From: Gemmata obscuriglobus
GTDB taxonomy: Bacteria; Planctomycetota; Planctomycetia; Gemmatales; Gemmataceae
Reading direction: 5' to 3'
DNA length: 32,000 nt
NCBI RefSeq assembly: GCF_008065095.1
Contig: NZ_CP042911.1
Span: forward strand, 7,950,001 to 7,982,000
In this document: positions 1,954 through 20,037 of the stretch, one piece after another
Layout of the letters: every line of letters begins with the position of its first letter
Numbering within the stretch: position 1 is the first letter of the stretch
The notes under the pieces: generated by a model
Database searches by the model: none
Seen by the model: the letters and a program-made list of their open reading frames with translations, nothing else
What the model was told of the DNA's origin: nothing
Position numbers and translations under genes: made by a program

Positions 1954-2156
1954 ATCCGATCCACGATCCGGTTGATTGATCTTGTGTCATTGCATTTTAG
2001 TCGTCTCCATCTGCGCGGCTCCTGGAGGGTGAACGGACTGCAACGCCCGGGGCCACAACGACACAAACCTGGAACGGACCGTGAACAAGTACCGCTAGCC
2101 GGCTCCGCCGAGTACCCGCTCGTGGGTGGGGCGCTGATCAAGTAGATCAATCACCG

Positions 2157-2185
2157 GTTCCAAAAGCGCCGAGGCGCTTTGGAAC
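2157..2185. other. Stem-loop GTTCCAAAAGCGCC-GA-GGCGCTTTGGAAC (13 bp with a one-nt bulge)
   Basis: Read directly from the sequence. It sits in the 360 nt gap between the WD40 gene and the IS4 remnant. No U-run follows it. Confidence 0.3.
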
Positions 2186-2315
2186 GAAGACGATACCGAA
2201 AGCGTGCTGGTGGTGCGGCCACCTGATCACGACCCCGGCCCTGCCCCCCGACGGGTGCGATCGCCCTACCGTATCTTCTGCACTTTATCGCGGCAAAGCG
2301 ATATCTACTCTCGCG

Positions 2316-3332
2316 CATCCCTTTCAACACGGGTGAGTGATCCGTAATAGCCTATGGGGATAGATGTTGCGTGAGCATTATTGAGGTGCAGGGGCGTTAC
2401 TGGGCGCGGTCGTTGAGCGTTTCGTGGAGCGAAGCCCGATGGCGGTCGCGGTCCGTGGTGCGTCCGAGTGCGCCCTCAATCCGACCTCGACGCCCTGTTC
2501 GTTCGCATCGCCGGGGTCGGGACGACCGCGAGTTGCTGTTCCCCACGTGCGTCGAGCTGATGGCCAACGTCGTGTGCCGGGTGAAGCCCTCGGTCCACGC
2601 CGCGTATCCGGCCGACGGCCACGCGTGTCGGTGTCCGTATCGGCCGTGTGCGCCCGCCTGGCCCGTGTCCCGACGGCCGCGGGACGGGAACGGGTGCGGC
2701 ACACCGCCGACCGCCTCGGGCCGGTCATCCGGGCGATGGGCGGGTCGGCCCCGGACCCGCTGGCCGGTTACCGGGTAAAGGTGCTCGACGGGAACCACGT
2801 GTGCAAGACCCACAGGCGGCTCAAGCCGCTGCGGGACGTGGTCGCCGGGCCAGGCCCTGGTGGCTCTCGACCCGGCCCTCGGGTTGGCGATCGACGTGGT
2901 CTGTTGCGAGGACGGGCACGCCCAGGAGCGGTCCCGGCCCGCCCCGATCCTGGCGACGGTGGCCGAGAACGACGTGTGGGTCGCGGACCGGAACTTCTGC
3001 ACACCGGGTTCCTGTTCGGGATCGCCCTACGGAACGGTTCGTTCGTCATCCGCCGGCACGCCGCGACCCGGAGTTGGAAGTGTCGGGTGCGTGCCCGGGA
3101 CCGTGGATCGCCGTTCCGGTCGAAACATGGGCGGGTCTGGGAGCGTGGTCGGTCGGGCCGATGGCCGAATGGCTCAAGGAGCCGGCCCGGGGTGCGAACC
3201 TGGGGCGGTATCGGAAGGCCACCCGCGGGCCGAAAAAACCGAAGCCGCCCCGCACCCGATTCCCCGAGGCCAAACACGTCGCGACATCGCGGCTGCTCGG
3301 CACTGAACAGACGCGATGTATTGAGAGGGATG
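2316..3332 (+). mobile_element. Decayed, internally deleted IS4-family insertion sequence bounded by imperfect terminal inverted repeats
   Basis: IRL is CATCCCTTTCAACAC (2316-2330). The reverse complement of 3318-3332 is CATCCCTCTCAATAC, giving 13/15 identical. These repeats enclose the frameshifted transposase remnants. No target-site duplication was recognised. Confidence 0.6.
2371..3305 (+). pseudogene. IS4-family DDE transposase pseudogene (multiple frameshifts, shortened)
   Basis: Transposase-like segments change frame repeatedly. Frame 1: RELLFPTCVELMANVVCRVKPSVHAAY (~2527-2605). Frame 3: VSVSAVCARLARV...AGYRVKVLDGNHVCKTHRRLKPLRDVVAGPGPG (~2625-2860). Frame 1: ALDPALGLAIDVVCCEDGHAQERSRPAPILATVAENDVWVADRNFCTPG (2860-3009). 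Frame 3: GFLFGIALRNGSFVIRRHAA (~3003-3063). Frame 2: GANLGRYRKATRGPKKPKPPRTRFPEAKHVATSRLL (~3191-3299). VLDGN, DGHAQE and WVADRNFC are IS4-type blocks. At least four frameshifts and a total length under 1 kb indicate decay. Confidence 0.7.
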
Positions 3333-3460
3333 GTACGACCAACCCACGCGGAACAGTTTCACGAACCACCACACCCTGAGTACGGAACGTCACGCCCTCG
3401 TGGCGGGTCGGCGGGAACCGGTGCTCCAGAGCACGCCGCTCACCCAATACGGGGGCTCGA

Positions 3461-3883
3461 TCACCCGCACGCCGTAGTGGGCACCGTGCGGGCCGCGAGG
3501 TGCCCACCGACCCAGTCGAGCAGCCGAATCAGGTCGGCCGGCGCGACCGGCTTCACGAGGTGCAGGTCGATGCCGGCGTCGGCCGAGCGCCACCGGTCCT
3601 CCTCGGACCCGCACCCAGTGACCGCGACCACCAGCGGTTGCCGACCGCCGGCACGCTCGCGCAACCGGCTCGCCACCTCCCACCCACTCGGGCCGGGCAG
3701 TTGGATGTCGAGCAGGACCACGTCCGGAATCTCGACTGCGGCGTCACGGAGCGCGTCCGGACCGCACGTGGCGACCCGGACGGCGTGGCCGCACATGGTA
3801 AGGAGTTCGGCCGTTGACTGAGCGCAATCGTGCTGGTCTTCAACGACCAGCACAGAGAGGGGAAGGCGCGGCGTCAAGTTCAT
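3461..3883 (-). CDS. Single-domain response regulator (CheY-like receiver, no output domain)
   Basis: The sequence reads MNLTPRLPLSVLVVEDQHD...PDVVLLDIQLPGPSGWEVA...LVVAVTGCGSEED...GIDLHLVKPV. It has the acidic pair, the phospho-acceptor Asp context, and the T and K positions of REC domains. ATG 3883 was chosen; the ORF-track GTG at 3964 is an alternative. Confidence 0.85.
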   Translation of the reverse strand: MNLTPRLPLSVLVVEDQHDCAQSTAELLTMCGHAVRVATCGPDALRDAAVEIPDVVLLDIQLPGPSGWEVASRLRERAGGRQPLVVAVTGCGSEEDRWRSADAGIDLHLVKPVAPADLIRLLDWVGGHLAARTVPTTACG

Positions 3884-4218
3884 CGAATCGGTCCGATCGG
3901 GCGGGTTCGGCGCCCGGACGGCATTCGCCGCCCAATACGCTCGAGAAGGGCGCGGGTTGCGCACAGGGGGTCGACGTACACGGTGTCCGTGCTACGCAGC
4001 CAGCGTCACAGCCAACCGCCGTCGATACCGTTGGTACGCGGAACATTTTACGCAGTCACCCAACAATCGAAACCCTGATCTTGCAGACGCCGGCTCATAA
4101 ATGGGTTTTCTCCTGACGAGCCGCGTCGGTGAACCGCCTCCGAACCGTGAAAATCGGCAACGTACATCGGCGCGCGAAAACCGTTCGCTTAGGGTTTGTG
4201 CGTAACAGGAGGTCCAAA

Positions 4219-4821
4219 ATGCCCAATCCCCTCAAATGGCCGAGCGAAGACGAGGGCCGCCGACTTCACGCGACCCTGCCCGGCACCGATCCGGCTGCCA
4301 CATCCACTTTCGCTGACGCATTTTACGATCCGTTGTGCGCATACCTGACCCGCACCTACCGCCACGTCCCCGAGGATCTGCTTGTGAGCGTTGCGGGCGA
4401 TCTGATCTTGAAACTGATTCAACACCCGGAACAGTATGACCCGAAACAACTTCCGGTGTGCGCGTACCTGCGGATGGCCGCGCGACGCAAGTTGACCACC
4501 GCCTGTGAGCGCGAAACCCGGCGCCGGCGGCGCGAAGTTTCGCTCGATTTTGTCGCGGATCCGCCTGCTGCCGGGAACAGGTTCCCGGGGACCGGTGACG
4601 GGCCGAATTGGGCGCACCCGGCGCTCGCGGCGGAACTCGCCACCCTCTCCCCTGCGGAACAGACCACGTTCGGGCTCCTGCGCGACGGCGTCCGCGACAC
4701 CGGCGCGTTCGCCCGGGCGCTCGGGTTGAACACGGACCGCCCGGACGTCGCGATCGTTGTCAAACGGATCAAAGACACCCTCAAGGCGCGACTGCGGCGC
4801 GCCGTCGGAGGTCGGCCATGA
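4219..4821 (+). CDS. Sigma-70/ECF-like RNA polymerase sigma factor-like protein
   Basis: AGGAGG (4208-4213) lies 5 nt before ATG 4219. A region-2-like segment is present (FADAFYDPLCAYLTRTYRHVPEDLLVSVAGDLILKLIQHPEQYDPKQLPVCAYLRMAARRKL). A region-4-like HTH is also present (LSPAEQTTFGLLRDGVRDTGAFARALGL...VKRIKDTLKARLRR). The stop overlaps the next start as ATGA at 4818-4821. Confidence 0.6.
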   Translation: MPNPLKWPSEDEGRRLHATLPGTDPAATSTFADAFYDPLCAYLTRTYRHVPEDLLVSVAGDLILKLIQHPEQYDPKQLPVCAYLRMAARRKLTTACERETRRRRREVSLDFVADPPAAGNRFPGTGDGPNWAHPALAAELATLSPAEQTTFGLLRDGVRDTGAFARALGLNTDRPDVAIVVKRIKDTLKARLRRAVGGRP

Positions 4822-5174
4822 CCACGTTCCCACTCGACCGGCTCGCGGAGCGAGCGTCCACGGAACCGTTCTTCCTTGGATCTCGGCTGAAGGCGTTCGC
4901 GGCGCGTGAGCGCCTCGACGACCCCGCCCTGGCCGCGCGACTCGGTTGCGCCGTTCCGGTACTCGCGCAGGTGCGCCTGTGCCGGGCGCCGCGACTCGAC
5001 TCAAGCGCCGCGTACCGCGAAGATGTCACCGCGATCGCCACCAAGTTCGGTCTGAACACGGTCGCACTCGCCGAGGCCGCCAAGGCGGTCCCGGTTGAAG
5101 CACTGGCGCGCCCCGGTGCGACCGAACCCGCGGGCGCGGTTCTGGCGGCGCGCGACCGGGGCACAACGTCATGA
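4818..5174 (+). CDS. Small XRE-like helix-turn-helix protein (putative repressor partner of the peptidase)
   Basis: The ATG at 4818 overlaps the upstream stop. FLGSRLKAFAARERLDDPALAARLGCAVPVLAQVRLCRAP fits the XRE HTH pattern (LG..L...R....L....LA..LG.....L). Its stop overlaps the next ATG at 5171-5174. Confidence 0.55.
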   Translation: MTTFPLDRLAERASTEPFFLGSRLKAFAARERLDDPALAARLGCAVPVLAQVRLCRAPRLDSSAAYREDVTAIATKFGLNTVALAEAAKAVPVEALARPGATEPAGAVLAARDRGTTS

Positions 5175-5854
5175 CCGTTCGGCCGCCGGTCCGGGTGTCC
5201 AATCTCGCAGCCCGGTTCTGGGCCGAAGTCGGCCCGCCGCCGCCGTTCCCGCGCAACCTGCGCGATGTCGCGTGCTGGCTCACCGATCTGACCGTTCAAG
5301 AAGTACCGCGCCTCACTCTGTCGCGCGCCGCGGAGCACTTCCGGCGCGAAGGTGTCCCCTGCGCCGAACCGACGCACGACCGACCGCTGTGCGGGTGCTT
5401 CGGCGCGCGTACACGCGCTATCATCCTCATCGATCCCGATGACGAACCCGACCAACTCCGGTTCACGTTCGCGCATGAATTAGCTCACTTCCTTCGCGAC
5501 TGGTGCGAACCGCGCCGTGCGGCGGTGCGCCGGTTCGGCCCCGCCATCCTCGAAGTTCTGGACGGCGCCCGCGAGGCGACGTATGCCGAGCGGTTCGCGG
5601 GCGCGCTCCGCGGTGCCCCCGTTGGCCCCCTCACGCACTTCCTTGAGCGCGACCGGTGGGGCCGGGTGACCGGCGACGACGCGCACGAGGCGGAAGAGGC
5701 CGCCGACCGGCTGGCGTTCGAGTTGCTCGCCCCGTTTGAGACCGTGGCCCCCTCCGCGTCCGACACGCACCGATCGCTCGCCGCACGGCTCGCCGATACC
5801 TGCGGGCTGCCGCCCGAGCCGGCCCGAACATACGCCGCGGCGCTGCTCCGCTAA
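5171..5854 (+). CDS. ImmA/IrrE-family (DUF955/M78-like) zinc metallopeptidase
   Basis: The HEXXH motif occurs in FTFAHELAHFLRD, in a 227 aa protein directly downstream of and translationally coupled to an HTH gene. This is the canonical ImmR/ImmA arrangement. Confidence 0.8.
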   Translation: MTVRPPVRVSNLAARFWAEVGPPPPFPRNLRDVACWLTDLTVQEVPRLTLSRAAEHFRREGVPCAEPTHDRPLCGCFGARTRAIILIDPDDEPDQLRFTFAHELAHFLRDWCEPRRAAVRRFGPAILEVLDGAREATYAERFAGALRGAPVGPLTHFLERDRWGRVTGDDAHEAEEAADRLAFELLAPFETVAPSASDTHRSLAARLADTCGLPPEPARTYAAALLR

Positions 5855-5940
5855 CCACTTCTCACAAAAGACCACTACACGCCTCCCGAAAAATCATCAA
5901 AATCGTGTCGATGTCAGCCTCCCGACGCGGAACGGCTTAA

Positions 5941-7200
<1,260 letters not shown>

Positions 7201-7347
7201 GAACAACAAAACGGGTCTCACCGCGGAGAGCATGAGAGGGCGCCGCGCGCGGAAAATTGGCCAGACGATCTTCATCGTTCGGTTTCCCCTCTCTGCGCCC
7301 GTTCGTACCCTCTGCGGCGAAACCTCTTTCTTCTCGGAGGCGTTCCA

Positions 7348-9231
7348 ATGCCCGGATCGAACGGCGTGCTGACCGAGCCGCAACAGCAACTCGCGAACGA
7401 GATCGCCCGCGCGGGCGGGCCGAAGTTCGCCCACCCCGACGACGCCGGGTCGGTCGGCGTCACCATGTTCGACCTGCCCGGCAGCGACGACCTCACCGTC
7501 ACGGTGCTGCTCGGGCGCGACCACCTTCAGCTCGCGCCGTCGCAGTCGCTGGTGCGGATCAAGAGCCGCAAGGACGAGCGCAACTACCTCGGGGTGGTCA
7601 CCGCCGGCCCGTTCGCCGAGCCGGACGGGCTCCGCGCCGACTCCGACATCCTCAAGGCCGTCGCCACCCACCGCGGCGACTACCTGCCGCCGTTCCACGG
7701 CCGCGTTCAGGTGACCATCCTCGGCGAAGAACTCAAGGGCGGCGAACTGGCCCCGCCGCGCCTGCGCCCGCTCCCCAACAGCCCGGTGTTCGTGCTCGAC
7801 GACGCGGACGCCGCCCGCGTGCTGAAGTGCGGCGGGAACGTGCGGCTCGGGCTGGCGGTGGGGCACCAGACCGTCGAGGTCGGGGCGCCGTCGCACGCCA
7901 AGGCCGTGTTCCCCCGCCACACCGCGGTGCTCGGCACCACCGGCGGCGGGAAGTCCACCACCGTCGCGGGCCTCATCGCCCGGGCGCGGGCGGCCGGGAT
8001 GGCGGTCGTCGTGCTCGACGTGGAAGGCGAGTACACCGCGCTGCACCAGCCCACCGACCACAAGACGATGTGCGACGGGCTCCGCGCCCGGGGGCTGGCA
8101 CCCGCGGGCGTGCCCGAGCAGGACATGACGGTCTACCACCTGGTGGGCCGCGGGACGGCGAACCCGGACTTCCCGAACTGCAAGCCGTTCTCGCTCCAGT
8201 TCGCCCGGCTCTCGCCCTACGCCGTGATGGAGATCCTCGACCTCTCCGACGCCCAGCAGGAGCGGTTCCTGAAGGTGTACGACATCGCCAAGCCGCTCCT
8301 CCGCGACCTCGACATCTTCCCGCAAAGGGGGCACCCCGAGCAGGAGCAGATGGCGCTCGACCTCGACGAGTTCGAGCGCGGCTACCCGCGGGTCACCGTC
8401 CCGCTGCTCATCGACATCACCCGCGCGTGCGCGCTGCGGGCCGAGCCCAAGGGCGACAAGAAGCGCGGGAAGAAGGGCGACGACGACGCCGACGACGCCC
8501 CGACCTTCGACCCGTGGTGCCGCGAGCTGAAGCAGTCCGGCGCGGTCGACCACCTGAACAAGCGGGTCCACGCGGCGAACCCGCCGGGCAACACGGTGTC
8601 GTGGCACGCGGTCCACGGCCGGCTGTCGCGGCTGAACCGGCTCAAGGTGTTCTTCGACGAGACCCGCGACGGCACCCAGCCGCTGAAGTACGCGAACCTG
8701 CTGAAGCCCGGCGCGCTGTCCGTGATCGACCTGTCGGACACCGGGTTCTCGGAGCTGAACAACCTCGTCATCGCGGACATCCTGCGGGGCATCCAGGACG
8801 CGCAAGACCTCGCGTGCGAAAAGGCCGAGCAGCAGAAGTCGGCGCCGACGCCGGTGCTGATCGTGATCGAGGAGGCGCACGAGTTCCTGAGCGAGGAGCG
8901 GATCAACAAGACCCCGGTGCTGTTCGAGCAGGTGGCGAAGATCGCGAAGCGGGGCCGCAAGCGGTGGCTCGGGCTGTGCTTCGTCACGCAGCTCCCCGCG
9001 CACCTCCCGAAGCAGGTGCTGGGGCTGTGCAACTCGTTCATCCTCCACAAGCTGCAAGACCCGCAGGTGGTGACGCTGCTGAAGCGCACCGTCGGCGGCG
9101 TGGACGAAGGACTCTGGGACCGGCTCCCGAACCTCGCCCCGGGTCAGGCGGTGGTCAGCTTTCCGCACTTCGCCCGACCGCTGTTGGTCAGCATCGACCC
9201 GAGCCAAGCGAAGCTGCGTCTGGCGGAATGA
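7348..9231 (+). CDS. herA: HerA-type hexameric ATPase/translocase (HAS-barrel + FtsK/HerA P-loop, DUF87-like)
   Basis: GGAGG lies 8 nt before ATG 7348. An N-terminal barrel-like region is present (LVRIKSRKDERNYLGVVTAG...PLPNSPVFVLDD). Walker A is RHTAVLGTTGGGKSTT and Walker B is PVLIVIEEAHEFL. The C-terminal LCFVTQLPAHLPKQVLGLCNSFILHKLQDPQ is typical of HerA/DUF87. Confidence 0.9.
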   Translation: MPGSNGVLTEPQQQLANEIARAGGPKFAHPDDAGSVGVTMFDLPGSDDLTVTVLLGRDHLQLAPSQSLVRIKSRKDERNYLGVVTAGPFAEPDGLRADSDILKAVATHRGDYLPPFHGRVQVTILGEELKGGELAPPRLRPLPNSPVFVLDDADAARVLKCGGNVRLGLAVGHQTVEVGAPSHAKAVFPRHTAVLGTTGGGKSTTVAGLIARARAAGMAVVVLDVEGEYTALHQPTDHKTMCDGLRARGLAPAGVPEQDMTVYHLVGRGTANPDFPNCKPFSLQFARLSPYAVMEILDLSDAQQERFLKVYDIAKPLLRDLDIFPQRGHPEQEQMALDLDEFERGYPRVTVPLLIDITRACALRAEPKGDKKRGKKGDDDADDAPTFDPWCRELKQSGAVDHLNKRVHAANPPGNTVSWHAVHGRLSRLNRLKVFFDETRDGTQPLKYANLLKPGALSVIDLSDTGFSELNNLVIADILRGIQDAQDLACEKAEQQKSAPTPVLIVIEEAHEFLSEERINKTPVLFEQVAKIAKRGRKRWLGLCFVTQLPAHLPKQVLGLCNSFILHKLQDPQVVTLLKRTVGGVDEGLWDRLPNLAPGQAVVSFPHFARPLLVSIDPSQAKLRLAE

Positions 9232-10423
9232 GAGGCTGGCCCCAACACGCCCTGTGATCGGCTTGGAAATCCCCACTCTCGCTCGTGGGCGCCGGCGACC
9301 GCATCGCCGGTGCATCGGGTATTGTTCCATCGCATTTCTCCCACGTCGCACTTCCAAAAGTCCGAACGGCAGCTCTTGGGGTGACCGACATCAAGTTTTT
9401 GCCCAGGACAATCGCACAGCACATCCGAACCAGAACCGCCGCAAGGGTCTATTCGGTATGACGTTGCATCGCGTTGCGCGGACGGCGCTGAAACTGTCCT
9501 CCGCTCGTCTCGGGCACTTCTGGCACGCTCCGAGCGTGGGATTCGGTGGTAGCGACCACCCAGCGAATCGGTAGCTCGTGACCAGTCCAACGGCAGCGAA
9601 TGTCCAGTCGGCGCCCCATCGGTTATCCGCATCCCCGGCACGTTCCCGCAACCCGCACTGGCTCAATCCGTTCGATTGCGCACGGCCACGGTCCAGCATT
9701 GCCCCGCGTGAGCCGGGACCGCCCAAACCGCTCGATGGCCCTCGGACGCGATCCGCGAGAAAGACCAACCGCGGGCGAAACAACTCGCCTATCTAACTGA
9801 TGGCACGGCACGCGAAGAGCCAGTCGCCGTGACGACAACGCTTTGGTGAGCGGCCACATTGCCGTGGTCTGTAGCCTTGTCGGCTGAGGTGTTGTCACGC
9901 CAAGCGAAGCAGGAGTGCTGCGGTACGAAGTGACCAAGAGTCAGGCCGGACGCTCCCGTTCCGGTTCGTCGGCATCCGCGCGGACTGCGTCGCTGAAGCG
10001 CGGGATCGGGTGGCAGTGGATCGCCTCCGCCCAGGCGAGACATTCAGCACCGAGAAGGGCACGTGCAAGGAGTGGCGCACCCGAGACGATGCAAAGACAT
10101 GCGCGCTGCTTAAATACGGAGGAGCAGAAGAGATTGTGCGATCTGCAAAGGCAGCCAGCGCGTGTTAGATGTCGTTGAGCGGGACACTGCCACCAGGAAC
10201 AGCTCTCACGGAGCATCTCCGCGCCAGATGCGATTTACGACAAATTCATCGTAAGTCTCCGGAAACTTATATCAACGCAACATGACCCGGCAGCACAAAG
10301 AATAGGCCGCGCCAATCGATCCGCCCTTCGCTCAACCGGGATACTGGTGGTACTCAAGGTGTTGGTGCATCACGACGGCGCGACGCACCGAATCGGTTTC
10401 ACCAACTTGGCTCCGACCGAGGA

Positions 10424-10927
10424 ATGATCGTGGTTGAGACCGCCACTTACGCCCCGGGGCCGGATGTGCGAGCCAAGTTCAGGCGCGAGATCGAGCAACT
10501 GCTTGCCAAGATTCCCGCCGAGCAGTGGGCCGATCATGACCTGCGCGGGGTGCTCTACGAGTTCGTACCCTGGCACCGCATGTCGTCCGTCACCATCCAG
10601 ACCCGCGATGACAGATCCGACGACATCGCGGCGTGGAAATATTACTTCTCAGCCGAGTCCGACGGGTCGCTGATTCGAGATGAGTACGAGGCGTGGCACA
10701 ACGAACCAGACAGCAAGCGGCTCGTGTACCACAAATTGCTGATCGAGGCGGCGGAAGCGTTCCTCTCGATCGATTTCGGGAAATACAGCAATCCGTACTG
10801 GTCCGCGATTAACCGAAACTTCTGCCTGAACAAAACGTTCTTGCTCCAGGTCTACGACGTGGACGGTACGTTCACCTTCAACTACTGCGATTACGTCATC
10901 GCCCGGCGGCTCGAAACGCGGGGTTGA
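10424..10927 (+). CDS. Hypothetical protein (167 aa), lower GC than its neighbours
   Basis: It is the only convincing ORF in 9232-11100. It has a balanced, non-Arg/Pro-rich composition (…WKYYFSAESDGSLIRDEYEAWHNEPDSKRLVYHKLLIEAAEAF…). GAGGA lies just upstream of ATG 10424. I see a vague resemblance to small immunity-type (DUF4303-like) proteins, which is unverified. Confidence 0.6.
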   Translation: MIVVETATYAPGPDVRAKFRREIEQLLAKIPAEQWADHDLRGVLYEFVPWHRMSSVTIQTRDDRSDDIAAWKYYFSAESDGSLIRDEYEAWHNEPDSKRLVYHKLLIEAAEAFLSIDFGKYSNPYWSAINRNFCLNKTFLLQVYDVDGTFTFNYCDYVIARRLETRG

Positions 10928-10955
10928 CGCTCGCCTCGATTGGTGTGTCGCAAAC

Positions 10956-10987
10956 GCGTGACGCCGCCCGCCTTTTCCGGCGCACGC
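10956..10987. terminator. Stem-loop between convergent genes (GCGTGaCGCCG - CCCGCCTTTTC - CGGCGCACGC)
   Basis: A 10 bp GC-rich stem with one bulge and a T-rich loop lies 29 nt after the stop of 10424-10927. A convergent gene ends at 11107. Confidence 0.35.
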
Positions 10988-11106
10988 TAAGTCTGCTCCG
11001 AAGCCCCGGCGAGTAAACACTCGGTTGCCCCACGCCGAAAGGCTGGCGCCCCGGTGTGAGCAGAATCGGAGACGTTGGGCAGTGCGTGGCACGGACACAA
11101 GGGCGG

Positions 11107-11934
11107 TCACTCCGCGAGGTAGTGGGAGACGTGGACGGTCACGGCCAGTTCGGTCGCACGCGGGTCGTCCGACGCGACCTCGTCTTCCTCAAGCACGTAA
11201 CCGACCGCGGCCAGTAGGGCACTGCACCGCTGATCCGTCATCATGCGGTCCGGCCGGACGGAGGCGGCGTGCCCGTAGTTCAGCGAAGACACCACGCCGA
11301 GTTGCCGCCCGGCCGCCCGGGCCAGGCGCTCGGCGCGGCCCCGGGCGGCCCGGTACGCCTCGGCTGAAGCCCGGGTCAGTTGCTCATCGGTCGGCCGGGC
11401 GATGTACACGAATTTGGGCGAGCGGTCGTCCTCCGGTTGGGTCGCTTTTGCGATCATATGCTGGATCTGTGCCGCCGGGTCGGCCCACGGTAAGGGCTCC
11501 CGCTCCGACGTCGGCTCCGACGGGTTGACGTTCGCCGCGACATCGAACCGGAGTTGATCGACCAAACTCAACACCGCGTCGGCCGACAGCCCGGTAATGT
11601 CCCAGGTGGCCGCCACCGCCACGTTCACGCCCCGCCGGTCCTCCGGGGTCGCTCCCCGCGCGCCGCGCCCGGCGGCCGCACGCATCCGGGCGATCGGGTC
11701 GGGGTCGGCCTGATCGTCGGGGTGCGAATCGCCGGCCCAGGCGCGGGTGGCCCCCAGGCGCATCAGCCGGCGCACGGTGTCGTCTGCCAACTGGTGCATC
11801 TCAGCCAGTGAGGCGTCCAGGGTGGCCCCGGCGGCCCGAACGCGAGCGATCATGAGCAGAACCGACGGCCTTTGCCGGACGACCGCGGTGGCATTGGCGC
11901 TGACCATCGATCGAACAGAGGTAGATTCGGCCAT
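11107..11934 (-). CDS. SIMPL/DUF541-like protein
   Basis: TDEQLTRASAEAYRAARGRAERLARAAGRQLGVVSSLNYG matches the SIMPL signature as I remember it (A..A...A...A..LA.aaG..LG.v.s). ATG 11934 (MAESTSV...) was chosen over the ORF-track start at 12003. Confidence 0.55.
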   Translation of the reverse strand: MAESTSVRSMVSANATAVVRQRPSVLLMIARVRAAGATLDASLAEMHQLADDTVRRLMRLGATRAWAGDSHPDDQADPDPIARMRAAAGRGARGATPEDRRGVNVAVAATWDITGLSADAVLSLVDQLRFDVAANVNPSEPTSEREPLPWADPAAQIQHMIAKATQPEDDRSPKFVYIARPTDEQLTRASAEAYRAARGRAERLARAAGRQLGVVSSLNYGHAASVRPDRMMTDQRCSALLAAVGYVLEEDEVASDDPRATELAVTVHVSHYLAE

Positions 11935-12085
11935 CCGTCCCGCTCCTCCGGCGTGAGTGACGTTCGCGAAGCAACGAGCCGCGGGGTTTGTCTGATTTGG
12001 CACGAGCCCGGCGCACCGGACGACGGTGCCCCGTGCGGACCGGATTCGTGTCGAAAACCAGTCGCCACCGAGGCCGATTGCTCGG

Positions 12086-12204
12086 ATCCAGCAGTTTCAA
12101 ACTCCGGGTTCCAAGTCGGGAATCAGTCCAGTAAAAGCTCCGGCCATTCGTATGCCTTTTGAGTTTTACGTGAAACTTGGAACCTGGAACTTGAAACCAC
12201 TGAG
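12086..12204 (+). repeat. AT-rich palindromic intergenic element, copy 1
   Basis: It shares these blocks with 20038-20147: ATCCAG-AGTTTCAA, GGTTCCAAG, TTCGT-TGCCTTTTG, TTTACGTG-AACTTGGAAC, TTGAAAC-ACTGA. The outer arms AGTTTCAAACTCCGGGTTCCAAG and CTTGGAACCTGGAACTTGAAAC are inverted repeats. Confidence 0.8.
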
Positions 12205-12373
12205 ATTGTACTGTGCGTGAGACTAACAAATCGGCGCGCGGCCCGCAACCACCCCGCGCATGCGCCGTTGCATGCCGCACCTGCTCCGGGCGGTCGTGAG
12301 CGGCGGAATTTTTTGTCGAACTCCGCCCACCCGGCCGGAACAACTCGCGGAACCGCCCCCACGGAGCCGCGAC

Positions 12374-12646
12374 ATGGAACCGGTTCTGATCGAGTCGTAC
12401 CGGGTGATGCTGAAGTCCCATCCCGTCGATTGTTCGGTCGATCGCATCCTGTGCGATCCCGAACTCCGCGCCGAGTTCCTGGAGTTGGTTCGCGCCCGGG
12501 CCGGCGAGCGCTGCGAGTTCGATGTCCTCCACGGGCTGAACAACCTCCGCAAACGGAGCCGGCTCCCGCGGCGCGACGACGACGAGCCACGCGCCCGCTG
12601 TGCGCAGCGGCCCGCACCGAACCCGGCGTCGGCAACCGGACCGTGA
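12374..12646 (+). CDS. Hypothetical small protein (90 aa)
   Basis: ATG 12374 (MEPVLIESYRVMLKSHPVDCSVDRILCDPELRAEFLELVRARAGERCEFDVLHGLNNLRKRS...). Third codon positions are strongly G/C-biased. It is convergent with the kinase gene. No domain was recognised. Confidence 0.5.
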   Translation: MEPVLIESYRVMLKSHPVDCSVDRILCDPELRAEFLELVRARAGERCEFDVLHGLNNLRKRSRLPRRDDDEPRARCAQRPAPNPASATGP

Positions 12647-14731
12647 TTAAAGCGTGTGGGGCGAGGCGGGAATCGACTGGAGCAGGGCGGTCACCTCGTT
12701 GAGGTCGACCGGCTTCACGAGGTGGTGGTTGAAGCCCGCCTCTTGCGACCGGCGCCGGTCGTCGTCCTGGCCGTAGCCGGTCATCGCGATGAGCGTCACG
12801 TCCCGGAGGCCCGGGATCTGGCGCAACCGGGTCGCGACCTCGTAACCGCTCATGCGGGGCAGCCCGATGTCGAGCAGCACGACACCGGGAGGGTGCGCCG
12901 CGGCGTCGCGGAGCGCGGCCGGGCCGTCGTGCGCGGTCCGCACCGTGTGGCCGCTCAGCGACAAAAGCTCGGCCAGGCTTTCGGCCGAATCGACGTTGTC
13001 GTCCACGATCAAGAGCCGGTGGGTCGCGGGGGCCGCGTGCGTCGGCTCGCCGTTCGGGCGTGTACCCGCGGTGCCCGTCCCGAGGGCCGGCAGGCGGACC
13101 ACGAACTCGCTCCCGCGCCCGGGGCCGGCGCTGTGCGCCTCGACGCTCCCGCCGTGCAGCTCGACGAGGTTGCGCACGAGGGTGAGGCCGATGCCGAGGC
13201 CGCCCTGCGCGCGGTCCAGCGTGCGCGGCTCCTGGGTGAACAGGTCGAACGCCCGCAGCAGCATCTCGGGGCTCAGCCCGATCCCGTTGTCGCGGACGCG
13301 GACCACCGCCCCGCCGCCCTCGCGCGCGGCGCTCAGCTCGATGCGCCCGCCGGGGTCGGTGTACTTCGCGGCGTTGTTCAGCAGGTTGCCGAAGATCTGG
13401 GTCAGCCGCGTCGGGTCGGCGTCGAGCGGGATCGGGTCCGGCGGGACGGAAACGATCAGCTCGTGCCGCCGGGACTCGATCAGCGGGCGGGCCGTTTCGA
13501 CCGCCCGGGCGATCGCGTCCGCGAGCGCCACCCGCTCCCGGTGCAGGGTCACCTTCCCGCTCGTCAGCCGCGACACGTCGAGCAGGTCGTCCACCAAGTG
13601 GGCCATCTGCCCCACCTGGCGGCCCAGGATGCCGGTCAGCCGGGCCACGTCGGGGTCGTCGGACTTGGTGGACTGGAGGACGTAGACGGCGTTGCGCACC
13701 GGGGCGAGCGGGTTGCGCAGCTCGTGGGCCAGCATCGCCAGGAACTCGTCCTTGCGCCGGTCCGCGTCCGCGAGTTCTTTGGCGCGCAGCCGCAGCTCGG
13801 TTTCCAGGCGCTTCCGCTCCACCGCGCTGCCGATGACGTCGGCCAGCGCTTGCGCGTACTGGATCTCGTCGGGGGTGAACCGGCGCGGGGCGTGGGTGTA
13901 CGCGCCGAGCAGCCCGAACGGGCGCGGGCCGCGGCCGGGGATGCGCACGACCAGCCCGCTCGCGGCGCCCGCCGCTTTCAGGTCCGGGTCCAGCGGGGCA
14001 CCGCCCCCGGGGTCGCCGAGCGCGACGGCCCCTTCGGAGCGCAGCGCGGTGTCGATCCGGGGACTTGTGCCGGGGCGCAGCAGGGCGGACGGTTCGGCCC
14101 AGCCGGAACCCGCGAGCCGCCCCCACTCGCCCCCGCCGGGCAGGAGTTCGAGCACCTCGGCCAGCTCGGCGCCCACCGTTTCGGCGAGCCGGCGGACCGC
14201 GTCGCCGCACAGTTCCACGATGTCGTGGCCCGCCAGCGCGGCCCGCGCGGACTGTGCGAGGGACGCCTGCTGCCGCCCGCGGGCGCGCAGCTCGGCGTCG
14301 CGGACCACCCGCTCGGTGACGTCCGCGACGAGCGTCAGCGTGCCACCGGCGTTCACCCCGGTGACGAGCGGGAGCACCCGCACCGACTGCTGCATTAGCG
14401 ATTGCGGCGCCCCGGGCACGGGCGTAGGGATGGGAAGCACGTACTTGTGGAACTGTTGCGAGAGGATCGCCGTTTGCCCGGCCAGCGCCTGCCGGTAGTA
14501 CCGTTCGAGCCCGCGGGCCGCGAGATCCGGGAACAGGTCCAGCAGCCCGCGCCCCAGCACCGCCGCGGCGGGCCACCCGCTGGCCCGCTCCAGCCACCGG
14601 TTCCAACCGGTCACGACAAGCCCGGCGTCCGTCGCGAGGAGGCCCCAGTCCCCGACGGCGTCCAGTTCGCGAACGAGATCGGCCGATACAACCATCTGTT
14701 CACTCGTTCGCGTGCGCCCCGGTGTCCTCAC
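12647..14731 (-). CDS. Hybrid sensor histidine kinase (PAS - GAF - HisKA - HATPase_c - REC)
   Basis: PAS-like N-terminus: LLATDAGLVVTGWNRWLERASGW. GAF-like middle: GLLGAYTHAPRRFTPDEIQYAQALAD. H-box: DEFLAMLAHELRNPL. N-box: NLLNNAAKY. G-boxes: RDNGIGL and GGLGIGLTLV. C-terminal receiver: LLIVDDNVD...VVLLDIGLPRMSGYEV...IAMTGYGQ...HHLVKPV. The GTG start overlaps the cheC stop as GTGA at 14728-14731. ATG 14695 is an alternative start. Confidence 0.93.
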   Translation of the reverse strand: MRTPGRTRTSEQMVVSADLVRELDAVGDWGLLATDAGLVVTGWNRWLERASGWPAAAVLGRGLLDLFPDLAARGLERYYRQALAGQTAILSQQFHKYVLPIPTPVPGAPQSLMQQSVRVLPLVTGVNAGGTLTLVADVTERVVRDAELRARGRQQASLAQSARAALAGHDIVELCGDAVRRLAETVGAELAEVLELLPGGGEWGRLAGSGWAEPSALLRPGTSPRIDTALRSEGAVALGDPGGGAPLDPDLKAAGAASGLVVRIPGRGPRPFGLLGAYTHAPRRFTPDEIQYAQALADVIGSAVERKRLETELRLRAKELADADRRKDEFLAMLAHELRNPLAPVRNAVYVLQSTKSDDPDVARLTGILGRQVGQMAHLVDDLLDVSRLTSGKVTLHRERVALADAIARAVETARPLIESRRHELIVSVPPDPIPLDADPTRLTQIFGNLLNNAAKYTDPGGRIELSAAREGGGAVVRVRDNGIGLSPEMLLRAFDLFTQEPRTLDRAQGGLGIGLTLVRNLVELHGGSVEAHSAGPGRGSEFVVRLPALGTGTAGTRPNGEPTHAAPATHRLLIVDDNVDSAESLAELLSLSGHTVRTAHDGPAALRDAAAHPPGVVLLDIGLPRMSGYEVATRLRQIPGLRDVTLIAMTGYGQDDDRRRSQEAGFNHHLVKPVDLNEVTALLQSIPASPHTL

Positions 14732-15348
14732 GCGCTGGCGGCCCGTTCGGCCCAGTCCTCGATCGCCCGAACGAACAGATCAAGTGAGTTGATGCCGAGC
14801 ACCAGCACCATGCACCCGGTCACCTCGCTGGCGCGGACCTTGAACCGCGCGCCGACGAGCAGCGCGTGACGGATCTCGTCCGCGCCGATGACCAGCGTGT
14901 CCAGCATTGAGCCGAGTGAATCTAAGTGTAGCCGCGGCACCGCGAATGTAAATCGGACCTGGAGCAAATCGCCGAACACCCCGAGGCACGCGTTCAGCAG
15001 GATGTTGCCGATCTCGGCCAGCACCTCGCGCGCGGAGTCGCCCATCTGCCCGGTCGGCGCCCCGGCCTCCGCCAGCAGCCCGACCAGCTTGGAGGCCCCG
15101 TCGATGTCCAGCAGCAGGAACGCGTCCCCCGACACCGGCCCGCCGAAGATCTGGTGGACCGTCGCGACCTCCCCCTGGACGAACCGGTGGAGGGCCGGGA
15201 GCAGCTCGGCGATCGGGTGCGCGGACACCTCCGGCACCGCCAGCTCGACGCGGTTGCCGGTGATCTCCGACAGCGCCGCCGCGGTCCGCGAGAACGCGAT
15301 GTTCACCGCCTCGGTGACCGCGTCCGTTTGCCCCTCGGTGAGCCTCAC
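14728..15348 (-). CDS. cheC: CheC-type chemotaxis phosphatase (two active-site motifs)
   Basis: Two copies of the CheC/CheX/FliY consensus D/S-x3-E-x2-N-x22-P were counted by hand. They are DAVTEAVN + 22 + P and DSAREVLAEIGN + 22 + P. The GTG start overlaps the cheY stop as GTGA at 15345-15348. Confidence 0.85.
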   Translation of the reverse strand: MRLTEGQTDAVTEAVNIAFSRTAAALSEITGNRVELAVPEVSAHPIAELLPALHRFVQGEVATVHQIFGGPVSGDAFLLLDIDGASKLVGLLAEAGAPTGQMGDSAREVLAEIGNILLNACLGVFGDLLQVRFTFAVPRLHLDSLGSMLDTLVIGADEIRHALLVGARFKVRASEVTGCMVLVLGINSLDLFVRAIEDWAERAASA

Positions 15349-15719
15349 TGGGCGGCCCCCTGGCGCCCGAGCGCGGCGGCGACGGCCCGGAGGACGGCGT
15401 CGGCGGCGAGCGGCTTGGGCACGAACCCGGACGCCCCGCCCGCGTCGGCCAGTTCGCGGGTGGAGGTCTGCACGTCGGCGGTGGCCATCACCACCACGGC
15501 CCCCGGGTCCATCACCCGGAGCTGCCGGAGCACCTCCAGCCCGTTCATCTCGGTCATCGTCACATCGAGCAGCACGAGGTCCGGCTTGTCGAGCGCGTAC
15601 CGCTCCAGCGCGGCCAGCCCGTCCGGCACGTCCGCGACGCTGTGCCCCGCGCCCTCCAGGATGCGGCGCGAGACCCGCCGCGACAGGGCCGAGTCGTCCA
15701 CCACCAGGATTTTCGCCAT
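15345..15719 (-). CDS. cheY: CheY-like single-domain response regulator
   Basis: MAKILVVDDSALSRR...DLVLLDVTMTEMNGLEVL...VVMATAD...FVPKPL. ATG 15719 shares one nt with the cheB stop (TGATG). The ORF-track N-terminal extension is Arg/Gly-rich and overlaps cheB. Confidence 0.9.
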   Translation of the reverse strand: MAKILVVDDSALSRRVSRRILEGAGHSVADVPDGLAALERYALDKPDLVLLDVTMTEMNGLEVLRQLRVMDPGAVVVMATADVQTSTRELADAGGASGFVPKPLAADAVLRAVAAALGRQGAAQ

Positions 15720-16756
15720 CACAGGGCCTCCAGAATCGCCTCGGCCATCTGATCCAGCGGGACCGCCCGGTCGCTCAGCCCGCCCTCCGCCACCGACCGC
15801 GGCATCCCGTAGACCACGCACGACGACTCGGCCTCGGTGAACACCCGGCCGCCCTGCGCCTTGATCCACGCCGCCCCCTGTGTGCCGTCCGACCCCATGC
15901 CGGTGAGCACCACCCCGAGCGTGCGTTCGCCGTACACCTCGGCCGCCGAGCGGAACAGCACGTCCACCGCCGGCCGGTGCGGCGTGTCGAGCGGGTGCAG
16001 GCTCAGCCGGGCGGCCACCGTTCCGTCCCGCTGGCGGGCACACGTCAGGTGGTGTCCGGCGGGCGCGACCAGCGCCGCGCCCGGACGAAACGTATCGCCC
16101 TCGCGCGCCTCGGACACGGCCACGCGCGCGACCGCTGCAAGGCTCCTGGCGAAAAGCTCAGTGTAGCCGACCGGCATGTGCAGGACTATCGCAATCGGCA
16201 CCGGGAAGTCCGCCGGGAACCGGGGGACGAGGTGCTTGAGGGCCTGCGGCCCGCCCGTCGAAACCCCGACCACCAGCACGTCGGCCCGTTTGGCCTTCGG
16301 CGCGGCGGCCGGGGGCGGCGCACCGGGGAGCGGCCCCCGGGCCACGGGGGCCACGCGCGCGGCGGCGACGGCCTTCACCGTCGCGATCAGCCGGTCGGCC
16401 ACCTCGAACACCTTCTCGGTGGCCAGCGCGGTCGGCTTCTGGACCACCTCGACGGCGCCGGCCTCGAGGGCACGCACCGCCAGCTCGTCGCTCTCGCCCG
16501 CGGTGCTCAGGACGACGACCGGGAGCGGCCGCTTGGCCATCTGCCGCTTGAGGAAGTCGAGCCCGTCGGACCGGGGCATGTGGAGGTCGAGCGTGACCAC
16601 GTCCGGCCGGAGCGCCTCCACCTGTTCGAGCGCCTCGTCGCCGTCCCGCGCCACCCCGACCACTTCGAGGAACGGGCTCCGGGCCAGCATCTGGCGGACG
16701 GATTTGCGGACGTACGCGGAGTCGTCCACGATCAAGACACGCACGATGTCGTTCAC
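15719..16756 (-). CDS. cheB: Protein-glutamate methylesterase CheB (REC + methylesterase)
   Basis: The receiver reads RVLIVDDSAYVRK...VVTLDLHMPRSDG. The catalytic domain has VVGVSTGGPQAL, IVLHMP and GVVLTGMGSDG (the Ser/His/Asp triad contexts). Confidence 0.95.
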   Translation of the reverse strand: MNDIVRVLIVDDSAYVRKSVRQMLARSPFLEVVGVARDGDEALEQVEALRPDVVTLDLHMPRSDGLDFLKRQMAKRPLPVVVLSTAGESDELAVRALEAGAVEVVQKPTALATEKVFEVADRLIATVKAVAAARVAPVARGPLPGAPPPAAAPKAKRADVLVVGVSTGGPQALKHLVPRFPADFPVPIAIVLHMPVGYTELFARSLAAVARVAVSEAREGDTFRPGAALVAPAGHHLTCARQRDGTVAARLSLHPLDTPHRPAVDVLFRSAAEVYGERTLGVVLTGMGSDGTQGAAWIKAQGGRVFTEAESSCVVYGMPRSVAEGGLSDRAVPLDQMAEAILEAL

Positions 16757-16771
16757 GGCTCTCCCGGGCGA

Positions 16772-17608
16772 TCAGCGTTTGACGTACACGAACGCCTTGG
16801 CGATCTCTTCCAACTGGAACGCGCTCGCCACCCGCAGCAGGGACTCCGCCGCGCCGGTGAACAGGTACGCCGGCGCCGGCGTCCGCTCGGCGAACCCGCG
16901 GACGACCCGCGCAACGGTCGCGGCGGAAAAGTAGATGAACACGTTCCGGCAAAAGATGAACGGGGCGGCCGCGAGGGCGCGCGTGTCGTCCGCGTTCAGC
17001 AGGTTCGCCGGCCGGAACTGGACCCGCGCGTGCAGCTCGGGGGCCACCTTCGTGCCGCCTTCGGCGGGAGCAAAGTACTTCTCGCGCAGGTGCGGCGGGA
17101 GGACCCGGAACGAGCGCTCGCGGTACACGCCGCGCCGGGCCTTCTCGAGCGCCGCGGGGCTGACGTCGCTGGCCCACACCTCGACATCGGCCCGGTCGAA
17201 CCAGCCGGCCTCGTTGAGCGCGATCGCGATGCTGAGCGGCTCCTCGCCCGTGGCGCACGCGGCCGACCACACCCGGACCGGGCCGCGCCCCGCCGCCACG
17301 TGCTGGGGCACGAGCACGTCGACGAGCGCCCGCACCTGCTCGTGCTCGCGCCAGAAGTACGTCTCCTGAACGGACAGCGCGTCGGTCAGGTGCGGCCACT
17401 CCTCGTCCGACCCCGGGCCATACTTGAGTAGGTAGTAGTAGTCCAGGAACGAGTCCAGTTTCAGGTCCCGGACGCGGTCGGTGAGTTTGCTGCCCAGGAG
17501 GTCGCGCTTCTCATCCTCGAACGACACGCCGATGCGGTCGCGGATCAGGTCGCGCAAGATGACGAAGGTCCCGAGCGGCAGTTCGGGCTGCTCCCCGGCC
17601 GGCGTCAT
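16772..17608 (-). CDS. cheR: Chemotaxis protein methyltransferase CheR
   Basis: ETYFWREHEQ, RVWSAACATGEEPLSIAIAL (SAM-binding) and IFCRNVFIYF are present. ATG 17608 was chosen. The ORF-track GTG at 17800 would add 64 codons containing the G5C10 tract. Confidence 0.88.
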   Translation of the reverse strand: MTPAGEQPELPLGTFVILRDLIRDRIGVSFEDEKRDLLGSKLTDRVRDLKLDSFLDYYYLLKYGPGSDEEWPHLTDALSVQETYFWREHEQVRALVDVLVPQHVAAGRGPVRVWSAACATGEEPLSIAIALNEAGWFDRADVEVWASDVSPAALEKARRGVYRERSFRVLPPHLREKYFAPAEGGTKVAPELHARVQFRPANLLNADDTRALAAAPFIFCRNVFIYFSAATVARVVRGFAERTPAPAYLFTGAAESLLRVASAFQLEEIAKAFVYVKR

Positions 17609-17666
17609 ATCCGGCACCCGGCCGGGCGCTCGGGTGCCCCTACCGGCCGGCGGCACGCGCGCGCCC

Positions 17667-17681
17667 GGGGGCCCCCCCCCC
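17667..17681. repeat. Homopolymer tract G5C10 (C5G10 on the coding strand) inside GCGCGC-rich flanks
   Basis: Read directly: gcgcccGGGGGCCCCCCCCCCgcgcgcgc. It lies in the mcp-cheR spacer, or in the possible cheR 5' extension. Confidence 0.9.
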
Positions 17682-17804
17682 GCGCGCGCTTCGACGTTTT
17701 CGGCCCCATCGAACAGGTTCCCGTAATTCAGACCAAAGCCGGTTGAAGAGCAACGGCTCGGCAGGGAGGCGGTTGCACCCGCCTGCCAGCACCGCCCCAC
17801 GCCG

Positions 17805-19865: not shown

Positions 19866-19942
19866 GTGGTTCTCCGGTGAGTTCGTTGTGCCGCTGCGGA
19901 CCCGTACCCGACAATCCGGCTGACGGTGACTGCTTCTTGTGG

Positions 19943-19998: not shown

Positions 19999-20037
19999 CC
20001 ACAAAGCCAAAAACTGACACCAGCAACCGGATCGTAA

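Follow-up and report, generated by a model that had tools for sequence, protein, structure and literature searches.

A co-conserved sigma factor, HTH/M78 peptidase and nuclease-like/HerA gene cluster in Gemmata obscuriglobus and its relatives: a possible inducible helper of CRISPR immunity

Several described systems resemble, in one part or another, the locus analyzed here, a cluster of five genes (4219–9231) and a sixth gene further downstream (12374–12646) within 32,000 nucleotides of the Gemmata obscuriglobus genome (contig NZ_CP042911.1, positions 7,950,001 to 7,982,000 of the forward strand; this whole stretch is referred to as the window). Switches composed of a helix-turn-helix (HTH) protein and a zinc peptidase of the M78 family are well characterized for CapH/CapP, where CapH is cleaved at F82-R83, and for DdrO/IrrE. 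Lau et al. (2022) noted that capH and capP are accompanied by a sigma factor of the sigma70 family in 24 CBASS anti-phage systems. In archaea, nurA-herA genes are associated with CRISPR, and Csa3a co-activates the adaptation cas genes together with nurA-herA. In Myxococcus xanthus, the ECF sigma factor DdvS and the anti-sigma factor DdvA control an island that harbors CBASS and CRISPR-Cas of type III-B. Finally, NurA-HerA of Deinococcus radiodurans, Sir2-HerA and DUF4297-HerA have been described already.

As in CapH/CapP (and likewise DdrO/IrrE and ImmR/ImmA), a gene for an XRE-type HTH protein (gene 2) stands beside one for an M78 zinc peptidase (gene 3), CapH being the top fold match of gene 2 and CapP the top sequence-profile match of gene 3. 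Unlike CapP, the gene 3 product is 227 residues long, lacks the HTH and GAF domains associated with sensing of single-stranded DNA as well as a conserved cysteine switch, and has an insert of about 65 residues instead. Also unlike capH/capP, the regulators are co-directional with their cargo rather than divergent, the cargo consists of a nuclease-like/HerA pair plus cas adaptation genes, and a dedicated promoter motif would imply a two-tier cascade leading from a repressor to a sigma factor. With the archaeal loci, for which support of spacer acquisition has been proposed, our module shares the physical and/or transcriptional ties of HerA and a nuclease to CRISPR. However, whereas the archaeal loci encode a true Pfam NurA and are regulated by the CARF/HTH factor Csa3a or linked to Csm6, our module occurs in bacteria, is partnered by a type I-G-like Cas4-Cas1 fusion or, in locus L039, by a type I system with Cas7 (DevR/Csa2), has a nuclease that profiles do not recognize as NurA, and has a sigma/HTH/peptidase trio as its regulator. 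The parallel to DdvS lies in a dedicated ECF-type sigma factor for adjacent CRISPR-Cas/defense genes, which in our case is suggested by the promoter motif; DdvA is a transmembrane anti-sigma factor, whereas no such factor was detected here and control appears to be exerted via a cytoplasmic HTH/M78 switch, and cargo and CRISPR type differ as well. As in D. radiodurans NurA-HerA, Sir2-HerA and DUF4297-HerA, a gene for a hexameric HerA ATPase adjoins that of a presumed nuclease or effector partner, yet the NurA, Sir2 and DUF4297 profiles all fail to match gene 4, and neither a sigma/HTH/M78 regulator nor a CRISPR linkage is part of any of these three systems. No Sir2 or DUF4297 effector partnering HerA was found, gene 4 being devoid of any PADLOC or Pfam match.

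We propose that the six genes constitute a conserved, self-regulated module that serves as an inducible DNA-processing helper of CRISPR immunity, a reading whose chances we judge to be evenly balanced. A first-pass annotation of the window had noticed five same-strand genes, and all five open reading frames (ORFs) are indeed present on the plus strand: gene 1 (4219–4821; 200 residues, ATG at 4219 with AGGAGG 8 nt upstream), gene 2 (4818–5174; 118 residues), gene 3 (5171–5854), gene 4 (5953–7200; 415 residues) and gene 5 (7348–9231; 627 residues). The translational coupling it ascribed to the first three genes is reflected in ATGA overlaps at 4818 (genes 1/2) and 5171 (genes 2/3), and the ribosome-binding sites that it assigned to the last two are found as GGAGG before gene 4 and, at a distance of 8 nt, before gene 5. 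These ORFs agree with the called genes of G. obscuriglobus records (CP025958.1 and the ABGO draft), in which the HerA protein is identical and a gene is also called at the position of gene 6 (12374–12646, plus strand, 90 residues). What goes beyond the earlier annotation is a bipartite motif with a copy inside gene 1, gene 6 itself, and the adjacency to CRISPR-Cas genes, the latter being the strongest contextual signal.

A genome scan gave 49 loci from Gemmataceae and from Chloroflexota (for instance Thermogemmatispora, Thermalbibacter and Ktedonobacteraceae); including the window, 47 loci have enough upstream DNA to be informative. With the five window proteins as tblastn queries, genes 1 to 5 are co-linear in 43 of these 47, down to 25–45% identity and in both Planctomycetota and Chloroflexota, which is far beyond chance, and gene 5 follows gene 4 in every locus with enough sequence. 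The first-pass annotation had named beforehand, as a result that would speak against it, a merely accidental adjacency of the regulatory trio and the nuclease/HerA pair; their joint conservation across two phyla is the opposite outcome. The exceptions to co-linearity represent decay or disruption: L001 has suffered insertion sequence (IS) insertions, L026 retains a frameshifted remnant, and L030 is a case of absence.

The gap between genes 3 and 4, which exists in every locus, contains the motif AAAA-N4-GTCGAACTT-N12-CGGAA(C/T), followed by 10–20 nt, GGAGG and the start codon. In 41 loci, drawn from Gemmataceae and Chloroflexota, it stands 17–53 nt upstream of gene 4 in the form GTCG[AC]A[CT]-N14-17-GGAA. 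Scanning the loci with a position weight matrix yielded 86 matches on the gene strand versus 6 on the opposite strand, and the strongest minus-strand matches precede minus-strand genes. The window carries three plus-strand sites: a candidate promoter of genes 4 and 5 at 5899–5933 (core 5907–5933; AAAA-N4-GTCGATG-N15-GGAAC, with GGAGG and ATG 20 nt on), a copy inside gene 1 at 4552–4578 (GTCGCGGATCCGCCTGCTGCCGGGAAC) that may act as an internal promoter for genes 2 and 3, and a candidate promoter before gene 6 at 12315–12341 (GTCGAACTCCGCCCACCCGGCCGGAAC), which matches the core consensus exactly and scores 30.4 bits. The copy within gene 1 falls in linker codons and is kept in a peculiar way: GTCG and GGAA lie 19 nt apart at homologous codons in 42 of 42 aligned sequences, and the valine is encoded by GTC in 41 of 41 cases compared with a background usage of 36%, while the residues encoded differ, with E/A/D/G seen at one position and G/R and N/K at further ones. 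Since nucleotides are retained here where amino acids change, selection acts on the DNA and not on the protein at this site. Promoters of ECF sigma factors typically have GGAAC(TT) as their −35 element. The directionality of the motif, its constant spacing to the ribosome-binding site, its A-rich stretch upstream and its GAACTT box are in keeping with a promoter and out of keeping with a palindromic operator. We infer that the motif is read by the sigma factor encoded by gene 1, an assignment made because of the co-evolution of the two.

Of the 34 informative loci, at least 22 have cas genes beside the module. In 21 of the 34 the neighbor is Cas4-Cas1, while L039 has Cas6/Cas3/Cas7 (DevR/Csa2) instead; in most relatives Cas4-Cas1 and Cas2 come immediately after the module, and in Frigoriglobus the genes GSU0053, GSU0054 and Cas3 complete a type I-G (formerly I-U) system. 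The adjacency is immediate, with orientation kept, in two arrangements and with two CRISPR subtypes, and it recurs across lineages, in the relatives and not in the window. Gene 6 encodes a core of about 70 residues (90 in the window) that is conserved in 15 loci and for which no Pfam or PDB relative was found; in relatives it is located directly after gene 5 or between genes 4 and 5, often just before Cas4-Cas1. Motif sites precede gene 6 or Cas4-Cas1 in L001, L004, L009, L011, L022, L024, L027, L029, L031 and L032, and are placed directly before Cas4-Cas1 in L022, L027 and L031. The occurrence of one and the same motif before Cas4-Cas1 points to shared regulation, beyond mere proximity.

As to the individual products, the call of gene 5 as a HerA-family ATPase/translocase, predicted to be hexameric as is its family, is firmly supported: the protein matches Pfam DUF87 (PF01935, 8e-17), HerA_C (2e-10) and the PADLOC HerA model (4.9e-32), and its best solved relative is HerA of S. 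solfataricus (4d2i, 7.9e-22). NCBIfam HerA models match with E-values between 1e-25 and 1e-17, none of them reaching its equivalog cutoff. The P-loop of HerA/FtsK type is represented by Walker A GTTGGGKST and Walker B LIVIEEAHE, both legible in the translation as is FAHELAHF in that of gene 3; the N-terminal portion of about 170 residues gave no profile match.

Also firm is the prediction of gene 3 as an M78 zinc peptidase of ImmA/IrrE/CapP type, as had been proposed from its HEXXH motif, with Pfam Peptidase_M78 (PF06114) at 1e-7, above cutoff, and PADLOC capP at 1.4e-7. The family profile matches CapP (7t5t) at 6.6e-5 and IrrE (3dte) at 2e-3, with alignments covering both the HEXXH and the E..A..FA..LL.P motif, and H102, E103, H106, E175 and the AADRLAxELLAP motif are invariant in the family. 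The conserved insert of about 65 residues is situated between HEXXH and the third ligand, and beyond the third-ligand motif only about 40 residues follow, the protein being shorter than CapP (227 vs 288 residues). A cysteine switch involving Cys112 was rejected, as this residue is not conserved.

Gene 2 is a moderately supported XRE-type HTH protein of CapH/DdrO-like appearance, in agreement with the earlier XRE-like call. The protein itself has no Pfam match, and members of its family show scattered weak matches to HTH_31, Xre-like-HTH and HTH_17. Its AlphaFold2 (AF2) model has a predicted local distance difference test (pLDDT) score of 77.7, with a six-helix core near 90 and a disordered C-terminal tail. 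In a Foldseek comparison with the PDB, every top match was an XRE-type HTH domain, albeit with weak E-values (0.5–3); the N-terminal domain of CapH (7t5u) came first, and DdrO (6jq1/6rnz) was listed as well. An anti-sigma function of gene 2 was set aside given that all structural matches were XRE-type HTH domains; nor was a co-transcribed anti-sigma factor found, no anti-sigma domain being among the structural matches of gene 2, which favors a repressor-to-sigma cascade. An XRE-family HTH protein is thereby encoded next to the M78 peptidase as its candidate substrate, and the likeness of this pair to known DNA-damage switches, postulated at the outset, is borne out by the fold and profile matches to CapH/CapP and DdrO/IrrE. 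The tail of gene 2 contains the motif AARD (A110-A111-R112-D113; codons at 5145–5156, plus strand), a candidate scissile or docking site for the peptidase: A110, A111 and R112 are invariant in 29 sequences of two phyla and D113 is kept in at least 90% of them, while the surrounding tail is variable. An arginine at P1' of such a site would agree with the F82-R83 site of CapH, in line with AARD being the sequence cut by the gene 3 protease.

Gene 1 probably encodes a divergent ECF-type sigma factor with region 2-like and region 4-like parts, so that the sigma-70/ECF-like call receives moderate support. Taken alone, the protein remains sub-threshold (TIGR02937, E 0.0019; Sigma70_r2, E 0.045). At the family level, 15 of 29 members match Sigma70_r2 (best 1.7e-5), and the family profile matches two solved ECF sigma factors, 9isn_F (6e-4) and M. 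tuberculosis SigL (6dv9_F, 1.3e-3), the alignment with SigL spanning region 2 into region 4. With its 200 residues the product conforms to the two-domain architecture of ECF factors, which have region 2 and region 4 only.

Gene 4 belongs to a distinct family of more than 1,100 homologs, or 533 representative clusters at 50% identity. Neither gene 4 nor 41 diverse relatives gave any Pfam, NCBIfam, PADLOC or PDB sequence match, even at E ≤ 1. Its AF2 model is of moderate quality (pLDDT 64.6, residues 117–188 unmodelled). The top Foldseek match of this model was S. solfataricus NurA (2ygk; probability 0.80, E 0.076, template modeling score 0.26–0.33), followed by Argonaute PIWI domains, with Pfu NurA (3tai) at rank 47 and no fold match below E 0.05. 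A profile of true NurA, built from 21 sequences comprising Halar_0183 (an archaeal plasmid gene; PF09376, 3e-24) and homologs, aligned to gene 4 by hhalign with a score of 16.5 (E 0.35), lower than the 22.1 reached by the reversed-profile control, for which reason this alignment was rejected as evidence. At the level of motifs, without statistical support, CDGT and RGFPxLIDLAD of gene 4 superpose on ADGS and RGYPEILQQAD of NurA: the invariant residues D116-G117-T118 and R367-G368-F369-P370...D374/D377 would correspond to D107-G108-S109 and R357-G358-Y359-P360...D367, at a spacing of 251 residues compared with 250 in NurA. The product may be regarded as a probable nuclease and candidate member of the NurA superfamily, possibly with an RNase H fold. 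The earlier NurA call thus failed every profile test; what speaks for it are the motifs, the weak fold match and the partnership with HerA.

From these elements the following course of events can be envisaged. Genes 2 and 3 would form a proteolytic switch resembling CapH/CapP or DdrO/IrrE, in which a stress signal (DNA damage or infection being the likeliest) induces the peptidase to cut the HTH protein, probably at the AARD motif of its tail. Such signal-dependent cleavage would release the neighboring operon and thereby free the expression or activity of the gene 1 sigma factor, the simplest arrangement being one in which the HTH protein represses the operon of genes 1 to 3. The sigma factor would then recognize AAAA-N4-GTCGAACTT-N12-CGGAA(C/T) as its private promoter and transcribe genes 4 and 5 together with gene 6 and also, in the majority of relatives, the neighboring Cas4-Cas1/Cas2 genes, while the promoter copy inside gene 1 would re-supply HTH protein and peptidase, providing feedback and reset. 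The HerA motor and its nuclease partner may process double-stranded DNA ends, most likely in support of CRISPR immunity by making or trimming fragments for spacer acquisition, or by degrading invader DNA; these roles follow what has been proposed for the CRISPR-associated nurA-herA of archaea and for the Csa3a regulon. A more specific and more tentative version, on the doubtful side in our estimate, holds that the circuit is dedicated to CRISPR, with the HTH/M78 switch acting through the private sigma factor on the NurA-like nuclease/HerA pair, the 70-residue protein and Cas4-Cas1/Cas2, such that spacers would be acquired under stress only and HerA would supply the prespacers. It is an equally tentative idea that such a circuit would represent the bacterial, sigma-based counterpart of the archaeal Csa3a/NurA-HerA model, with one of its promoters inside the sigma coding sequence.

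A number of observations weigh against the role as a CRISPR helper. The evidence in its favor is computational throughout. The G. obscuriglobus copy is an orphan, with neither a cas gene nor a CRISPR array in the 32 kb of the window and a 3.1 kb insertion before gene 6, and 12 of the 34 informative loci show no cas gene within 10 kb, from which it follows that the module can persist without CRISPR-Cas. The promoter sites of the window are not uniformly strong: that of gene 4 is a weak variant (GTCGATG, 18 bits), the −35-like half of the gene 1 internal site is degenerate in the G. obscuriglobus clade, and within the window alone the relaxed motif pattern is not significantly enriched (8 matches vs 5.1 expected at two mismatches), the evidence for it being comparative. 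A universally conserved operator upstream of gene 1 was not found, the elements seen there being clade-specific. Gene 3 is ImmA-like in having neither the central HTH nor the C-terminal GAF domain that form the single-stranded DNA groove of CapP and IrrE; because of this lack, DNA damage as the trigger, which the first-pass annotation had taken over from the known switches, is an assumption. Lastly, the nuclease identity of gene 4 is argued from motifs, a weak fold match and the HerA partnership.

Against this background, three rival explanations have to be considered; the likelihoods we give for them and for the CRISPR helper are separate estimates that need not sum to one. The module might be a stand-alone inducible anti-phage system whose nuclease-HerA pair serves as the effector, as in Sir2-HerA and DUF4297-HerA, and degrades phage or host DNA, the nearness of CRISPR-Cas then reflecting nothing but the clustering of genes in defense islands. 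The match of gene 5 to PADLOC defense HerA models (up to 4.9e-32), the habit of CapH/CapP-type regulators to control defense operons, the persistence of cas-free copies in the window and at 12 other loci, the position of the Frigoriglobus copy among IS elements and a toxin-antitoxin pair, the non-syntenic flanks and the exchange of gene 4 as a cassette would all suit such a system. However, the promoter motif also precedes Cas4-Cas1, indicating shared regulation, and mere island clustering would not easily account for an adjacency that is immediate, oriented and repeated in two arrangements and with two CRISPR subtypes; in addition, PADLOC recognized no full system at the window locus, and no copy of the gene 4 family was found in plasmid and phage collections. 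The inference of the first-pass annotation, an inducible NurA-HerA defense module, survives as a rather unlikely alternative and has ceased to be the preferred reading. A regulon for the repair of DNA damage, specific to the lineage and analogous to Deinococcus IrrE/DdrO with bacterial NurA-HerA, in which the switch would induce end resection for homologous recombination and the linkage to cas would be secondary, strikes us as improbable. It would be in keeping with the repair HerA of S. solfataricus as the best solved relative of gene 5, with DdrO among the fold matches of gene 2 and IrrE matched by the gene 3 profile, with a gene 4 family that is widespread and well conserved in Gemmataceae, with the Mre11/SbcD-like gene and PD-(D/E)XK helicase that follow gene 5 in L049, and with the lack of mobile-element copies in the plasmid and phage collections. 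Nevertheless, the location is non-syntenic among Gemmata species, some genomes have two copies, each beside its own Cas4-Cas1, the distribution jumps phyla at 40–52% identity, and in the scanned loci the motif occurs only at module and cas-proximal genes and at no recognizable repair gene. The same features led us to reject a universal core locus of the lineage, an outcome that the earlier annotation had listed as fatal to its reading: sequence similarity between the window and other Gemmata species stops where the cluster stops, duplicate copies exist, and the gene family extends across phyla.

The third rival concerns the wiring of the regulators rather than the role of the module. The motif could be the operator of the gene 2 HTH protein, or the gene 2 product could be an anti-sigma factor that binds the gene 1 sigma factor directly; we give this a poor chance. 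The two half-sites of the motif have a GAAC core in common, at a spacing of about 22 bp that tandem HTH binding might exploit, and no universal operator was found elsewhere, yet the motif is strictly orientation-dependent (86 vs 6 matches), is not palindromic, keeps a promoter-like distance to the ribosome-binding site, and has an A-rich upstream element and a GAACTT box like the classical −35 elements of ECF promoters. Translational coupling of genes 1 and 2 is usual for sigma/anti-sigma pairs, although every match of the gene 2 model is to a DNA-binding XRE domain and none to an anti-sigma domain. The circuit favored here, in which a repressor governs a sigma factor, has candidate operators for the HTH protein in the clade-specific elements upstream of gene 1. 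In the window, the sequence at ~4152–4168, some 60 nt upstream of gene 1, is ACAACGTACATCGGCGC and represents the element ACAAC(C/T)GACATCGGCGC, which is also present in L002, L005, L009–L012 and L025; in L015, L029 and L032 a palindromic element, CAACGGTCGTTG, takes the homologous place.

If the module is indeed a CRISPR helper, it bears on the question of when bacteria acquire CRISPR spacers and where prespacers come from in systems without a RecBCD/AddAB link, especially those of type I-G. The circuit is concrete enough to be tested: it comprises a defined promoter motif, a putative cleavage site for the protease, a sigma factor of its own and a nuclease/translocase pair that would be co-regulated with Cas4-Cas1/Cas2. 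If true, it would widen the CapH/CapP paradigm into a cascade of two tiers, from repressor to sigma factor, and give a function to the sigma factors that have been noted, but not studied, beside CapH/CapP; a promoter within the linker codons of a sigma factor gene would mean that coding and regulatory constraints overlap. Should the module instead serve stand-alone defense or repair, gene 4 would still be a new family of HerA partners, comprising some 530 clusters and having no Pfam model. The claim that the combination had not been described holds in that a literature search, incomplete in coverage, retrieved no paper on the module, its promoter, a bacterial type I-G link or an ECF-DUF955 link; it does not extend to the joint occurrence of a sigma factor with capH/capP, which Lau et al. 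(2022) noted in 24 CBASS systems.

The arrangement of the module varies among the relatives. In Fimbriiglobus-like loci, gene 6 lies between genes 4 and 5 (L018 3970–4173, L020 3453–3656, L021 8056–8259 and L033 2498–2641), which explains the gap of 0.5–0.8 kb between these two genes in L020, L021 and L033; gene 6 of L033 carries its own copy of the motif. In L010 (13303–14028), the motif 3' of gene 5 precedes a 241-residue protein of no Pfam family that replaces gene 6 and is followed by Cas4-Cas1. Two metagenome-assembled genomes (MAGs) have two full copies each, JAIOPV01 (L010 and L011) and PNLP01 (L027 and L035), and Cas4-Cas1 lies downstream of each of the four. In the deepest clade, a zinc-ribbon/coiled-coil DUF2130 protein of about 400 residues (Pfam 5e-54) is followed by Cas4-Cas1 and Cas2, the set being divergent from gene 1 and located on the minus strand (L042 7018–8212, L043 6664–7997, L047 6388–7515 and L050 6802–8071); the bipartite motif precedes the DUF2130 gene in L042, L043 and L050, such that DUF2130 may be another member of the regulon. 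In a Thermogemmatispora MAG (L044, 5178–6026), a CRISPR array begins some 200 bp past gene 5 and counts at least 10 repeats, spaced at a period of about 74 bp; L044 is the only scanned locus with an array within reach. In a Chloroflexi MAG (L049, 13376–18312), gene 5 is followed by a 1,249-residue fusion of a PD-(D/E)XK nuclease and an SF1 helicase and by an Mre11/SbcD-like phosphoesterase, with no cas gene. As for the decayed copies, two IS elements, DDE_3 and DDE_Tnp_1, replace genes 1 and 2 in Frigoriglobus tundricola (L001, 7610–9945), where gene 3 is cut to a 92-residue remnant, and L026 (8779–9300) contains frameshifted fragments of genes 1 and 3; both loci retain the gene 4 promoter motif despite decay of the trio.

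Comparison with Gemmata algarum (L012) revealed a gene-sized mosaic, window positions 5980–7320 corresponding to 10030–11289 in that locus. Identity amounts to ~0.9 in genes 1 to 3 and the promoter, falls to 0.56–0.76 across gene 4, and rises to 0.97–0.99 in gene 5; recombination has replaced gene 4, and no other gene of the module, in one or the other of these Gemmata lineages.

The flanks of the window cluster are not syntenic with those of other Gemmata species. A context of IS remnants on the left and a low-GC stretch on the right had been taken as a sign of an accessory island, and this stands in part: in the G. obscuriglobus record the window's left edge holds a DDE transposase, and the G+C content, about 70% genome-wide, drops to 0.59 around 10–11 kb of the window. 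The ~3.1 kb that separate gene 5 from gene 6 (9232–12300) are an insertion relative to loci such as L004, L009 and L016; they contain a low-GC (~0.59) orphan gene of 167 residues (10424–10927, plus strand) that belongs to no family and a SIMPL-domain gene (11107–12003, minus strand). To the left of gene 1 follow, with increasing distance, a response regulator gene (3461–3964, minus strand), an ORF-poor stretch (1954–3460) and the gene of a WD40 protein (472–1953), and further left, beyond the window edge, the G. obscuriglobus record has a 678-residue fusion of an ECF sigma factor with PD40. The right flank, listed as 12647–20000, begins with a PAS/GAF hybrid histidine kinase gene (12647–14731, minus strand), beyond which lies a cheX/cheY/cheB/cheR cluster.

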